A stretch of 64,000 bases of DNA from Patescibacteria group bacterium (lineage in GTDB: Bacteria > Patescibacteriota > Minisyncoccia > UBA6257 > GWB1-50-10). Location: the NCBI GenBank assembly GCA_023474215.1, contig JAMCYI010000016.1, forward strand, positions 8,265 through 72,264, given 5' to 3'. Under the pieces are notes generated by a model. It saw only the letters and a list, made by a program, of their open reading frames with translations. It made no database searches and had not been told where the DNA came from. A program made the position numbers and the translations under genes. Positions 3,888 through 10,422 of this stretch are shown here, one piece after another (positions within the stretch are counted from its first letter, which is position 1; each line of letters begins with the position of its first letter).

Positions 3888-4997
3888 TTATTGCGTCTCG
3901 TTGTACAGATCTTGAATATCCTGTGCAGAAAGCGCGCGGTTGTAGATACGGATGTCGTCGAAGAGAGCATTGGCGTAGGAGTCGGCGCTCCAATTACTCC
4001 TCCCGATGTAATTCGTCGTCCTCGTCACGCCGGTCGAGGTAAATGTTGTAGCCATCGAGGTCCACAGTTGGCCATTTTTATATATCGCGGCGTTATTTCC
4101 ATCGGCGACGCCAGCCAAGAAGACCCACTGATTCAATGGTATCGGGGATCCAGACGATAAAGAGAAACCTCGGGTCCCGCCATTCCAGGACTCCAAATAA
4201 GCATCTCCGCTACTGCTCTGCGATATCGCAAAAAGGACGTTGTCCGAAGATGCCCCATTACCGAAATCCAAAAGGCGCGACCACGTATTGTAGCTCCTCA
4301 CGTAAACCCACCCCGTGACGGTGAAGGGGCCGCTGAAATAGATTCCGGACGGGAGACTTATGTAGTTGCTGGTGCCGTTGAAACTCAAACAATTCCCGAC
4401 TTCGCAACTTGAACCGCTTTGCCATAAGGGGCCGTTCGTGAGCGTGCCGTTGTTGCCATTCCCCGAGGCGTCATATGCCGTCGTCCCTGTCCCCTCGTCG
4501 AAGGGCCAATAGCCGACGAGGCCCTGCCAGAATTTTCCCTCGACGCTCCCTAAACTATTCACCGCCACGTCATAAACCAGATTGTCTTTTCTCCCGTCGA
4601 TGAGCGAAACGATCTGGCTCTGATTGGGGTAACCGGTCAAAGGATTAAAAAGGACGTCTGCTGAGGTCGACGTCGGCGGATTACCAAATGAAATGCCATT
4701 TCCCAGGGTATAAGCATTTCGAGAGGTACTCGAGGCATAGCTCGTGCCGCCGAATGAAGTGTAGGTATTGCCGGACGTTGCATTTGAAAAATGCATTCCC
4801 CATGCAGTGCCGTTTTCTTGACTCATCGACCGCTGCCTCGTGTTCCGGAATGCGGCCGCCACCTCTTCTCCAGTCCGTTGGAGAGTGTTCGAAACGCCAT
4901 AGCTACTGATACTGACAAACGAAACAGTCGCAAGAACCGCCACGATGGCGATCACGAGGAGGAGTTCGATGAGGGTAAACCCATTTCTGCTTCGCAT
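3888..4997 (-). CDS. type IV pilin-like protein with C-terminal LamG (concanavalin A-like lectin) domain
   Basis: 369 aa; prepilin N-terminus RNGFTLIELLLVIAIVAVLA (G|F cleavage site, E+5); C-terminal LamG-like region ending DDIRIYNRALSAQDI. Confidence 0.75.
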   Translation of the reverse strand: MRSRNGFTLIELLLVIAIVAVLATVSFVSISSYGVSNTLQRTGEEVAAAFRNTRQRSMSQENGTAWGMHFSNATSGNTYTSFGGTSYASSTSRNAYTLGNGISFGNPPTSTSADVLFNPLTGYPNQSQIVSLIDGRKDNLVYDVAVNSLGSVEGKFWQGLVGYWPFDEGTGTTAYDASGNGNNGTLTNGPLWQSGSSCEVGNCLSFNGTSNYISLPSGIYFSGPFTVTGWVYVRSYNTWSRLLDFGNGASSDNVLFAISQSSSGDAYLESWNGGTRGFSLSSGSPIPLNQWVFLAGVADGNNAAIYKNGQLWTSMATTFTSTGVTRTTNYIGRSNWSADSYANALFDDIRIYNRALSAQDIQDLYNETQ

Positions 4998-4998
4998 G

Positions 4999-6204
4999 TT
5001 AGAACTGCGTCGTCAGCTGGTAGATCGGAACGATAATGGAGAGCGCGATGAGACCGACGATGATACCGATACCCATCAGCATGACCGGCTCGAGGAACGA
5101 AACGAGCGACTTCAAGGAATTGTCGATCTCAGAAGAGTAAAAGTCGGAAAGCGTTCCCAAAACCTCTTCGATGTGGCCGGCCTTCTCCGAAATGGCCATC
5201 AAATTCACAACAGTCTTCGGGAAGAACGGCTCGCGCCGGAATGCCTCGCCGACCGTAAGCCCCTTCGCAAGCCCTTCCCGCGAAATGCGAAGCAAAGCAT
5301 CGTGCAAATCCACATTCCCAACCGTTTGCGCCGTAATTTCGAGGGCATCCGTCAAAGGAATACCGGCCTTGATAAGTTCAGAAAGCGTCGCCGCGAACCG
5401 CTGAAGCGCCGACTTGTTCATCAGATCCCGCACCACCGGGATTTCGTGAATGATGCTGAAAATGACCCGCCGGAATCCCATGGAGTTTTTGTAAGCAAAA
5501 AATGCGGCAATGAGGGCAATAACGGCAAGCCCTATGAAGAAGAAACCGTAATGGGCAAAGAACAGACCAACGGTGAAAACGATCCGCGAAAAGAGTGGCG
5601 GCGTAAAACCGCCCTGCTCGAAAACGTTCGCAATCTTCGGCAAGGCGTACATGACAAGGAACACCAAGATAAGAACGGATGCCGAAAGGAGAAGGATGGG
5701 GTAAATGAGCGCGCTTCGCACTTGGTCCCTCAGCATCTTTTCTTTGGCAAGCGAATTGGTCAAGTTTTCGAAGACCGAATCCAAATTTCCCGACGCCTCG
5801 CCGGCCCGGACGAGATTAATGTACACCTGGCTGAAAATTTTCGGGTATTTGGCGAAGGTAGAGAAAAAGGGCCGGCCGCCCTCGAGATTATCCCTCACTT
5901 CCATAAGGAACGACCGAACTGCCTTCTTGTCGAAATCTTCGATCAAGATGTTGATGGCCTGTAAGAGTCCCGTACCAAGTTTCAGCATCAGAGAAAGGTA
6001 TTTGGATATGAAAATTTGATCCGCAATGGTTATCTTGCCGCCGGAAATTCCGCCGCCAACCTCCGATTCTCTCACCGGCTTGATGCTGACCGGCCGGAGC
6101 CCGCGGGAAGACAAAAACTGCAAAACCCCCGAAACATCCTTCGCTTCGATTTGCCCTTGAATAACTTTTCCATCCGGCTGTGAGGCGATATAATTGAACT
6201 TCAT
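4999..6204 (-). CDS. pilC: type IV pilus assembly platform protein PilC (GspF family)
   Basis: 401 aa, polytopic, duplicated GspF-type domains (SRIVFTVGLFFAHYGFFFIGLAVIAL etc.). Confidence 0.8.
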   Translation of the reverse strand: MKFNYIASQPDGKVIQGQIEAKDVSGVLQFLSSRGLRPVSIKPVRESEVGGGISGGKITIADQIFISKYLSLMLKLGTGLLQAINILIEDFDKKAVRSFLMEVRDNLEGGRPFFSTFAKYPKIFSQVYINLVRAGEASGNLDSVFENLTNSLAKEKMLRDQVRSALIYPILLLSASVLILVFLVMYALPKIANVFEQGGFTPPLFSRIVFTVGLFFAHYGFFFIGLAVIALIAAFFAYKNSMGFRRVIFSIIHEIPVVRDLMNKSALQRFAATLSELIKAGIPLTDALEITAQTVGNVDLHDALLRISREGLAKGLTVGEAFRREPFFPKTVVNLMAISEKAGHIEEVLGTLSDFYSSEIDNSLKSLVSFLEPVMLMGIGIIVGLIALSIIVPIYQLTTQF

Positions 6205-6275
6205 AGACTTGTATTCAGTATACAGTATCTAGTATTTAGTATACGAAATACGAACTACTAAATACCATATATCCC

Positions 6276-9326: not shown

Positions 9327-9331
9327 ACGAA

Positions 9332-9967
9332 CTAGTTGATAAGTCCCGGTTCGCTCCCCACCTCAAAGACGTTCGCATCCACCCCGCCGTCGCGGTTCAC
9401 GACAGCGGTGGAGTTCGTCGGATTGCCGTATTTTTGGCTTTCCATGAGGGCCCCGATTTCATATTTGCCCGGCGTGGAGCTTGCCACAAAAATATACTGG
9501 CAAATGGCGTTATTGATGGAGGATCCGTCAAGACACGAGGGACTACCGTTATTGGGGTCAATCGGAAGGCCGGCCAAGGGAGATCCGCTCGAGATGAGGT
9601 TCAACTTGATATAGCTTTCCGTGCCATCCCACCCAACCCAACCGGTGCCGCTGACGCCCGTTGAACTGGCTACATAGCCGCATGACGTACTCACCGCGCC
9701 GGCGAACGTGCTCGTTGCCGTGCAATCGGTAACCGCTGCGGTCGGCCATGAAACGCCGACAGCAAGACTCACGTCCGAGCTGTATAAATTGAGCGCATTG
9801 TTAAGAGACGCGAGATCCGAAAGACGGTTCGAATCGCGACCCTGCTTCAAAAGTTCCGCCGGATTCAAAATAAGAACGACCGCGGTCGCAAGGACCGCCA
9901 AGATGGCGATGACGACCAAAAGTTCAATCAAGGTAAATCCCCTTGGTTCCGCAGTATCGATTTTCAT
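9332..9967 (-). CDS. type IV pilin paralog 3
   Basis: 211 aa; RGFTLIELLVVIAILAVLATAVV prepilin N-terminus, divergent C-terminus. Confidence 0.8.
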   Translation of the reverse strand: MKIDTAEPRGFTLIELLVVIAILAVLATAVVLILNPAELLKQGRDSNRLSDLASLNNALNLYSSDVSLAVGVSWPTAAVTDCTATSTFAGAVSTSCGYVASSTGVSGTGWVGWDGTESYIKLNLISSGSPLAGLPIDPNNGSPSCLDGSSINNAICQYIFVASSTPGKYEIGALMESQKYGNPTNSTAVVNRDGGVDANVFEVGSEPGLIN

Positions 9968-10032
9968 ACCCTTCCATTATAACAGAACTGGCTCTATAAG
10001 CAGATTCGCTTTTTACTAGTTGAGGTGGAGCC

Positions 10033-10422
10033 TTACTTAGACTCCGAGAAAAATTCTTTTATCTTACCAACCAGCTCTTCGATCGAAAGTTGGGCCTTGA
10101 TAAAGTAACCGACGGCCCCGAGCATTTGCCCTCTTTGAATATCCCCTTCTTGCCCCAAGTTCGAAACGATGACGACCGGAACATTTTCCGCGTTCGGATC
10201 GCTCCTCATGGATTCCATCACTTCGAACCCCGACATCTTGGGGAGAATAATGTCGAGGAGCATAAGATCAAACTTATCTTTTTTGAGATCGACGAGGGCT
10301 TCATCGCCATCATGCGCTTGAATAACTTGAAAGCCATCTCTCTCCAGCCTCCCCTTCAGGAGATTGGAAAGCATCGGTTCGTCTTCCACGAGAAGAATTT
10401 TTTTGGTGATCGGCTCAGCCAT
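10033..10422 (-). CDS. stand-alone response regulator receiver domain (CheY/PilH-like)
   Basis: 129 aa; ILLVEDEP...DLMLLDIILPKMSGFEV...VVIVSNLG receiver motifs with phospho-acceptor Asp. Confidence 0.75.
   Translation of the reverse strand: MAEPITKKILLVEDEPMLSNLLKGRLERDGFQVIQAHDGDEALVDLKKDKFDLMLLDIILPKMSGFEVMESMRSDPNAENVPVVIVSNLGQEGDIQRGQMLGAVGYFIKAQLSIEELVGKIKEFFSESK

Follow-up and report, generated by a model that had tools for sequence, protein, structure and literature searches.

The stretch of DNA considered here, 64,000 nt of contig JAMCYI010000016.1 from a Patescibacteria group bacterium (called the window below, always at its full length), carries a type IV pilus locus. It consists of three tandem genes for pilins of about 200 aa, genes for an assembly ATPase and a platform protein, and a fourth pilin gene whose product is fused to a LamG-type, lectin-like domain. 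Two of the tandem genes are nearly identical in their 5' parts, and the LamG domain of the fourth differs as a whole from that of a closely related strain. Patescibacteria are mostly uncultured, and type IV pili are leading candidates for their host recognition. Cultivated members live attached to other microbes, and host recognition in them is largely unknown (PMC11623550). The window DNA is identical to contig JAMCRU010000007.1 of the metagenome-assembled genome (MAG) GCA_023380715.1, and the closest full-length relatives are Minisyncoccia, Paceibacter, Jorgensenbacteria and Brennerbacteria MAGs. L-numbers (e.g. L086, L093) label the related loci or strains that were compared; P0002 and P0003 are the LamG-pilin proteins of L094 and L093, respectively.

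All genes of the locus are on the minus strand, and the coordinates given for them in an earlier note on this DNA were confirmed. The order along that strand is 16S rRNA, receiver, pilin 3, pilin 2, pilin 1, PilB, PilC and LamG pilin. The first gene of the locus encodes a stand-alone CheY-like receiver (10033..10422; Pfam Response_reg, E 6.7e-23), in which a manual count places the acidic pair E13/D14, as well as D57, S87 and K109. That a receiver heads the locus, as had been proposed, holds also in about 14 related genomes, where it occupies the same position. Pilin 3 (9332..9967, 211 aa) is major-pilin-like and the most diverged copy; pilin 2 (8697..9305) and pilin 1 (8078..8686) have 202 aa each, and all three match Pfam N_methyl. 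The pilin 2 open reading frame (ORF) as first called was 8697-9326, opening at TTG 9326. Its true start is probably the ATG at 9305, because TTG 9326 falls inside a promoter-like TGCTATAAT motif; it is also the 202-aa form that gene callers predict and that the public record gives.

The machinery genes follow. The PilB-type assembly ATPase (6276..7994) has an MshEN N-terminal domain and a strong match to Pfam T2SSE (E 6e-119, 397 bits). The NCBIfam equivalog models for PilB and GspE both score about 500 bits, each below its own cut-off, and the subtype is thus not settled between the two. The PilC-type platform protein (4999..6204) matches Pfam T2SSF in two stretches (162 bits) and the NCBIfam GspF and PilC models. 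The last gene (3888..4997) encodes the LamG pilin, a modular minor pilin with N_methyl and Laminin_G_3 domains (E 3e-29 for the latter). A scan for the class III signal motif found G/FTLIELL, i.e. Gly-1, Phe+1 and Glu+5, in all four pilins, and Pfam N_methyl and TIGR02532 score above their cut-offs. A PilB/GspE-family ATPase, a PilC/GspF platform protein with two T2SSF domains and pilins with class III signal peptides are among the marks of a type IV filament system, and the assignment of the region to a type IV pilus is upheld by them. The LamG ORF can likewise be taken as a genuine prepilin, as it has both the G/FTLIE processing site and Glu5, and a plausible tip adhesin, as the earlier note had suggested.

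The pilin genes contain a direct repeat. An identical 5' end of about 180 bp had been attributed to all three paralogs. This is borne out, nearly, for pilins 1 and 2, where 8493-8673 and 9103-9283 are 97% identical over 181 nt, with five mismatches and an offset of 610 nt. The two segments include an exact repeat of 151 nt on the minus strand, with copy A (9133..9283) in pilin 2 and copy B (8523..8673) in pilin 1. The repeat is therefore real, but it does not lie at 8521-8690 and 9141-9300, where it had been placed. It is also confined to pilins 1 and 2. Pilin 3 has 67% DNA identity in the block with nearly unchanged amino acids, and its description as the more diverged copy is correct. The 151-nt block codes for the signal cleavage site and helix alpha1.

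Why is the DNA of this block so alike in two genes? Constraint at the protein level does not account for it, because pilin 3, over much of the same block, differs synonymously from pilins 1 and 2 at 20 of the 35 codons that specify the same amino acid. When only codons for conserved amino acids are compared between pilins 1 and 2, synonymous differences are found at 1 of 50 in the block vs 45 of 88 downstream of it (Fisher p = 2.4e-10). The 3' two-thirds of the two genes are about 67% identical in DNA, and about half of the conserved codons there have changed synonymously.

Comparison with other genomes adds to this picture. In the 5' block, DNA identity is 97% between pilins 1 and 2 of this genome but 76-83% to their equivalents in L086 and L087, which encode almost the same amino acids. 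Between paralogs the block is 89% identical in L086 and 85-92% among paralogs 2-4 of L008; between genomes it is 62-72%. The same mosaic is present in L006 (119 nt, 100%) and L018 (193 nt, 91%), with the remainder of those genes at about 66%. A counterpart of pilin 1 can be recognised in other genomes (about 77-80% protein identity in L086 and L087), and the duplication must therefore predate the genome splits. The 3' part of pilin 1 is nearest in DNA to L087_b (72%) and L086_b (69%), vs 67% to pilin 2. These data have the form expected of interlocus gene conversion, i.e. a tract more alike within a genome than between genomes, with a 3' flank that goes, weakly, by ortholog. L086_b, the pilin 1 counterpart on an 804-kb contig of a close relative (L086 10001-10714), carries the signal segment RGFTLIELLVV twice, and this doubling is read as a recombination scar. 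Judged from these alignments, the alpha1-coding segment is under concerted evolution by gene conversion, superimposed on an old duplication. Gene conversion had been offered in the earlier note as one source of the 5' identity, and both the synonymous contrast and the within- vs between-genome identities of the block favour it. A literature search on concerted evolution of pilin genes turned up nothing specific.

Mosaic paralogs are found in other parts of the window as well. Four tandem GT8 glycosyltransferase paralogs (49214-53380, plus strand) include copies 1 and 4, which are 95% identical over 300 nt, and copies 2 and 3, which are 60-66% identical to copy 1. Two tandem GT1-like paralogs (47162-49119, minus strand) share a 300-nt stretch at 99%. 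The conversion-like pattern of the pilins therefore recurs elsewhere in this genome.

The LamG pilin represents a fusion of two modules, a pilin module of about residues 1-160, which may be GspH-like, and a LamG/concanavalin A (ConA)-like jelly-roll of about residues 180-369. A structure prediction, proposed in the earlier note, yielded a confident AlphaFold2 model (mean predicted local distance difference test score, pLDDT, 89.7; predicted template-modelling score, pTM, 0.86) with both parts: alpha1 at residues 8-57, a pilin beta-sheet at 65-163 and the jelly-roll from about 183 to 351. The Pfam spans are 1-26 for N_methyl and 207-362 for Laminin_G_3. An N-terminal pilin module followed by a separately recognisable extra domain is what defines a modular pilin (Raynaud et al. 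2021), and the protein has both. Foldseek matches of the jelly-roll include the carbohydrate-binding module that forms domain 4 of AbnA (5hon, template-modelling score 0.80), the trans-sialidase lectin domain and the Hc-N domain of clostridial neurotoxins. By sequence, the best PDB match is 4qvs, an S-layer-domain protein (E 1.4e-11). By analogy with such folds, the LamG pilin is a plausible candidate for a lectin-like adhesin, with a putative location at the pilus tip and putative glycan binding. The NCBIfam model of the haloarchaeal TafC family (NF052521) also matches the LamG-type region (E 7e-8), but at 32 bits vs a family cut-off of 410 bits, and membership in that family was dismissed as mere LamG-type similarity.

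Homologs of the LamG pilin number more than 2300 and are mostly from Patescibacteria. In about 15 related loci the gene stands directly after PilC, often with one or two more LamG-type pilins behind it. A word-indexed search with the pilin module alone gave 3 matches and missed known full-length relatives; it was replaced by an exhaustive HMMER search on cluster representatives, which found 3178. Among the best 150 of these, Laminin_G_3 is present in 86, about 44 are pilins of 150-200 aa with no further module, a few have fn3, NHL or Kelch modules and 4 match Pfam GspH.

Does the lectin-like module have the same history as the pilin that carries it? A comparison with L093 shows that it does not. 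The two strains are about 94-97% identical in DNA through PilC and the first 120 or so codons of the LamG pilin, and identity is back at 94-95% after the gene. Within the gene it drops to 73-78% at codons 141-180 (amino acids 90-95%) and to 28-50% at codons 201-340, and then recovers. The exchanged module thus extends approximately over 3930..4583 on the minus strand (about codons 138-355). In P0003 of L093 the pilin module is 96% and the LamG core 30% identical to that of the window. P0002 of L094 has the reverse combination, with a pilin module at 48% and a LamG core at 82%, in a locus whose PilB-PilC region has 68% DNA identity. Among 86 homologs, LamG core identity is 18-33% regardless of pilin-module identity, which ranges over 35-96%. 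In L086, the minor pilin linked to PilC (13731-15230) has the same pilin module followed by a non-LamG C-terminus of about 330 aa with YAWNDNIGW repeats. All of these data indicate that the lectin-like module moves independently of its carrier. As far as sequence comparison can tell, the cassette-like behaviour of this locus sits in the LamG module, between strains and lineages, and not inside one genome. Because it is replaced wholesale between near-identical strains, this module is a candidate for what determines host or ligand specificity, and it could be tracked in metagenomes.

The locus contains putative expression signals. Four genes, those for the receiver, pilin 3, pilin 2 and PilB, have an extended -10 motif, TGnTATAAT, 8-9 nt before the ATG. 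It takes the form TGCTATAAT 8 nt upstream of the receiver ATG and, at 9320-9315, 9 nt before the pilin 2 ATG (9305), and the form TGTTATAAT 8 nt ahead of the ATGs of pilin 3 and PilB. Pilin 1 starts 10 nt past the pilin 2 stop and is without a -10 motif of its own. The gap between pilin 1 and PilB holds a hairpin resembling an intrinsic terminator (8043..8065, minus strand), with a 10-bp stem that includes 8 G-C pairs, a following U-run, a folding free energy of -22.9 kcal/mol and a z-score of -5.6. The LamG pilin ATG is 1 nt past the PilC stop. We infer four transcription units from these signals: the receiver; pilin 3; pilin 2 and pilin 1, up to the terminator; and PilB, PilC and the LamG pilin. 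With such an arrangement, pilins would exceed the machinery in amount. The short distance between motif and start codon suggests that the mRNAs of receiver, pilin 3 and pilin 2 are probably leaderless.

This might be a general property of the genome. Of the 38 exact TATAAT sites in the window, 14 precede the ATG of an ORF of at least 129 aa by 6-12 nt, often as TGnTATAAT. They are exemplified by the sites at 10436, 9981, 9320, 8008, 17566, 22326, 29239, 43278, 45004, 49124, 56405, 62266 and 63090 on the minus strand and at 35442 on the plus strand. The 3' end of the 16S rRNA (10790-10830, minus strand) reads ...GCGUGGAUCAAUUAAACU, where the canonical sequence is ...GGAUCACCUCCUU, and so lacks the CCUCC anti-Shine-Dalgarno sequence. 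All ten related genomes checked (L006, L008, L012, L013, L014, L016, L017, L018, L027 and L086) lack it as well. Because TATAAT sites so closely precede ATGs, leaderless mRNAs are suggested to be the rule in this genome, which fits the missing anti-Shine-Dalgarno sequence. Loss of the latter in a subgroup of Parcubacteria has already been published (Tsurumaki et al. 2022, PMC9297842); no paper was found that ties leaderless mRNAs to it in this group.

Taken together, the locus is most probably (a probability of roughly 0.75) a core type IV pilus operon of Patescibacteria of the Paceibacteria/Minisyncoccia type, with gene-converted major pilins and a modular LamG minor pilin whose extra module is exchangeable. 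The three pilins of about 200 aa would be full-length, expressible major-pilin paralogs that either co-assemble in one filament or alternate as its main subunit. Repeated intragenomic gene conversion would hold the part for cleavage site and alpha1 identical in pilins 1 and 2. Alpha1 is expected to pack in the filament core and to contact the assembly machinery, and the surface-exposed heads would be left to drift independently. Pilin 1 presumably rides on the pilin 2 transcript, which would end at the terminator-like hairpin, and PilB, PilC and the LamG pilin would form a second unit with its own -10 motif. The pilin module would insert the LamG pilin into the filament, probably at the tip, where the jelly-roll may serve as an adhesin for a host surface or other glycan. 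Recombination within the gene would exchange the LamG module as a unit between lineages. The receiver may also have a role in the system. The locus thus offers a clean example, at the level of sequence, of helix-coding segments that are held identical by conversion and of surface parts that drift. Already known are the machinery, the modular-pilin architecture and the presence of type IV pili in Patescibacteria, and no new type of system is involved; new here are the strain-level replacement of a whole LamG module, uncoupled from the history of the pilin module, and the documented concerted evolution.

Several observations weigh against this interpretation. In the DNA of the 3' parts, grouping by ortholog is only slightly favoured (69-72% vs 67%). 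The conserved flanks of the LamG module are structural motifs that occur family-wide, and these may reflect a folding constraint rather than recombination arms. The head domain of pilin 1 had no Foldseek match in the PDB at E <= 0.001. The AlphaFold2 model of this protein (m4d9395f87e9c, pLDDT 91) has alpha1 at residues 9-61 and then a small head, so that either Foldseek performs poorly with a long helix or the head is structurally unusual; the assignment of pilin 1 as a pilin rests on signal peptide, alpha1 and genomic context. The locus has a single minor pilin, where canonical systems have several. Lastly, PilT, PilD and PilM/N/O/Q are not present in the window, as had been noted before, according to Pfam scans of selected long ORFs (mostly of at least 150 aa, short and overlapping ORFs being unscanned), tblastn with PilB and the signal-motif scan. 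The tblastn search of the window matched only PilB itself, and neither a PilT paralog nor a Peptidase_A24 domain, as in PilD, was present among the scanned ORFs. Genes for PilT and PilM/N/O may be located in another part of the genome. In the candidate phyla radiation (CPR), PilQ is not expected, as the cells are without an outer membrane, and type IV pili with PilB, PilT, PilC, PilM, PilN, PilO and PilD but without PilQ are described as enriched or widespread (PMC6744442). The pilus locus fits this published picture and does not depart from it.

A more far-reaching interpretation, which we regard as tentative and clearly less probable than the one above, is that of a two-level specificity system of an episymbiont, in which conversion keeps the major pilins compatible and the LamG module is an exchangeable host-recognition cassette. 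At the first level, conversion of alpha1 may keep three separately promoted pilins compatible for co-assembly and so give rise to mosaic or switchable filament surfaces. At the second, the LamG module may be horizontally exchangeable, similar to the swapping of phage receptor-binding proteins, and may set the host or glycan.

Could the filament instead serve in DNA uptake (competence) or some other non-adhesive function, with a structural or priming role for the LamG pilin? The pilin module is possibly GspH-like, as the NCBIfam GspH models match it weakly, below threshold, and the 4 Pfam GspH matches among the 150 best relatives point in the same direction; GspH-type pilins are part of the priming complex. 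The long PilB/GspE-type ATPase with MshEN and the pilins of about 200 aa are, however, unlike the small ComG proteins, and specificity for a ligand or host would more readily account for a lectin-fold module that is rapidly exchanged. Type IV pili together with ComEC have been proposed to function in DNA uptake in the CPR (PMC6744442). On balance a non-adhesive filament seems rather unlikely, but it would be compatible with an operon of gene-converted pilins and a modular minor pilin.

Programmed antigenic or phase variation, which the earlier note had raised in its cassette form, is a further alternative. The tandem pilins would be donor cassettes as in the Neisseria pilE/pilS system, with the 5' block as an anchor, or recombination between the repeats would delete and duplicate copies. 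Multiple pilin-related sequences and a RecA-type, non-reciprocal exchange are common to both systems. Exact direct repeats of 151 nt set 610 nt apart make a good RecA substrate, related genomes contain anywhere from 1 to 4 pilin copies, and the doubled signal segment in L086_b is consistent with unequal recombination. L089, a closely related assembly, has 13 single-nucleotide polymorphisms in 5 kb; 4 of them, all synonymous, cluster in a 17-nt stretch at the pilin 3 5' end and could be a micro-conversion tract. In Neisseria, however, the silent copies, which have neither promoter nor 5' end, supply a single expression locus with variable 3' segments, aided by a guanine quadruplex (G4). Here each copy is a complete gene that includes a start codon and codes for a signal peptide, both pilin 3 and pilin 2 have a promoter-like motif of their own, and the window has no truncated or silent copies, no other matching segments and no G4 motif. 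Pilin 2 and pilin 3 variants of strains from several samples differ by 1-10 residues, and neither of the possible chimeras of pilin 2 and pilin 1 is present in a collection of 15 billion proteins. Moreover, conversion homogenises the conserved part and leaves the variable part unshuffled. For these reasons cassette-type antigenic variation is improbable at this locus.

Two other explanations fare worse. If the genes had been duplicated in tandem only recently, and their 3' (surface) halves had then come under very fast positive selection without any gene conversion, tandem paralogs with identical 5' and divergent 3' ends would also result, and pilin surface regions do evolve quickly. But positive selection makes no synonymous changes, and yet half of the conserved codons downstream have them; and pilin 1 has counterparts in L086 and L087 whose 5' DNA is just 76-83% identical to the block found here. 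Recent duplication, as had been suggested for these genes, is thus not in accord with 3' parts at about 67% identity, and the explanation is very improbable. Hardly credible at all is an assembly collapse or chimera that created the identical block of this metagenome-derived genome: the arrangement receiver-pilin 3-pilin 2-pilin 1-PilB was assembled independently from another sample (L089, ENA ERZ27237183, MEGAHIT k141; 99.74% over 4962 nt), JGI 3300039716 (L090) covers the end of pilin 3, the whole of pilin 2, the start of pilin 1 and both junctions, both also show the block's five 3'-edge mismatches, and the breaks of two other assemblies within the repeat (L002 begins at window position 9137, L003 stops at 8552) are explained by the disruption that a true repeat causes in short-read assembly graphs.

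Two further mechanisms of variation were considered and rejected. An invertible switch of the Moraxella Piv type is not compatible with repeats that are direct and not inverted, and no recombinase was present among the scanned ORFs of the locus. For a diversity-generating retroelement, the window has no second copy of a LamG or pilin segment and no template repeat, and there is no reverse transcriptase domain among the scanned ORFs; the divergence of the LamG core (about 70% of amino acids over 150 residues) is not adenine-specific.

How does a pilus of gene-converted major pilins and a modular LamG pilin compare with systems that are known? By analogy, the machine would work like that of other type IV pili of monoderms, with Streptococcus sanguinis as the best-studied analogue. 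Neither has an outer membrane, so no secretin is needed. Each carries at least two major pilin genes whose products have an identical alpha1 and differ in their surface regions (PilE1/PilE2 in S. sanguinis), and both have a minor pilin with a ConA-like lectin module (PilC there, the LamG pilin here). In S. sanguinis, the two major pilins with identical alpha1 build a mosaic, heteropolymeric filament (PMC10628169), and PilC is a tip-located, glycan-binding pilin with a lectin module (PMC9934059). There are differences as well. Past alpha1, no sequence similarity of heads or lectin modules is detectable. The present locus has three major-type pilins vs two, one minor pilin and a CheY-like gene in first place, and PilD, PilT and PilMNO are not clustered with it.

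The N_methyl plus PF13385 architecture of the LamG pilin is exactly one that has been catalogued in modular pilins, in a survey that is a catalogue of domains only; N_methyl (IPR012902) with PF13385 is among the 15 commonest modular-pilin architectures, CPR examples included (Raynaud et al. 2021, PMC8179133). Closer in lineage is the Saccharibacteria strain TM7x, another patescibacterium, which has small, highly expressed major pilins and large minor pilins with C-terminal beta-rich domains that are implicated in host binding. Its T4P-1 and T4P-2 systems (two type IV pili) have the lectin-like minor pilins PilX1 and PilX2, and its pilus genes have limited homology outside Patescibacteria, with pilins unique at the sequence level (PMC11623550). 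The two are set apart by the published description and by lineage, Saccharibacteria vs a Paceibacteria-like organism here, and by the accessory domain, which is a Pfam-recognisable LamG here vs a jelly-roll in PilX1 and a propeller in PilX2. The TafC protein of haloarchaeal Tat-fimbriae (PMC11821415) is also a filament subunit whose sequence weakly matches the lectin-fold region; it is, however, Tat-secreted and assembled differently, and the LamG pilin lies outside that family.

The surroundings of the pilus genes are of some interest too. Downstream of the LamG pilin are tRNA-Thr, an ORF of 254 aa, an MtN3-like gene, tRNA-Trp, PCMT and the 5' end of the 23S rRNA (980-1, minus strand). The 254-aa ORF (2754-3518, minus strand; region 2851-3663) lies by tRNA-Thr and has only weak helix-turn-helix matches in Pfam and no NCBIfam match. 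It is not in L093, which is about 95% identical, but a copy with 64% identity lies downstream of the LamG pilin in L013. The ORF is probably a small mobile insertion.

About 9.8 kb separates the 16S rRNA (10810-12277, minus strand) from the 23S rRNA gene, and the complete pilus operon lies in this interval together with two tRNAs and three further genes. In at least nine of the related loci that include the 3' end of the 16S rRNA, among them L006, L008, L012-L014 and L086, the 16S gene again directly precedes the receiver gene. The 5' region of the 23S rRNA (about 472-754, minus strand) has about 282 extra nt relative to L087, and the 980 nt in the window span only positions 1-648 of the 23S model; going by this alignment, the extra segment is probably an intervening sequence or intron.

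Elsewhere in the window, a subtilase (25308-26864, minus strand) has a Por_Secre_tail domain, a C-terminal sorting domain of the type IX secretion system type, in an organism that is expected to be without an outer membrane. Two paralogous proteins with an IS200-like Y1 transposase domain and similar N-termini are encoded at 37784-38542 (minus strand) and 58039-58809 (plus strand).

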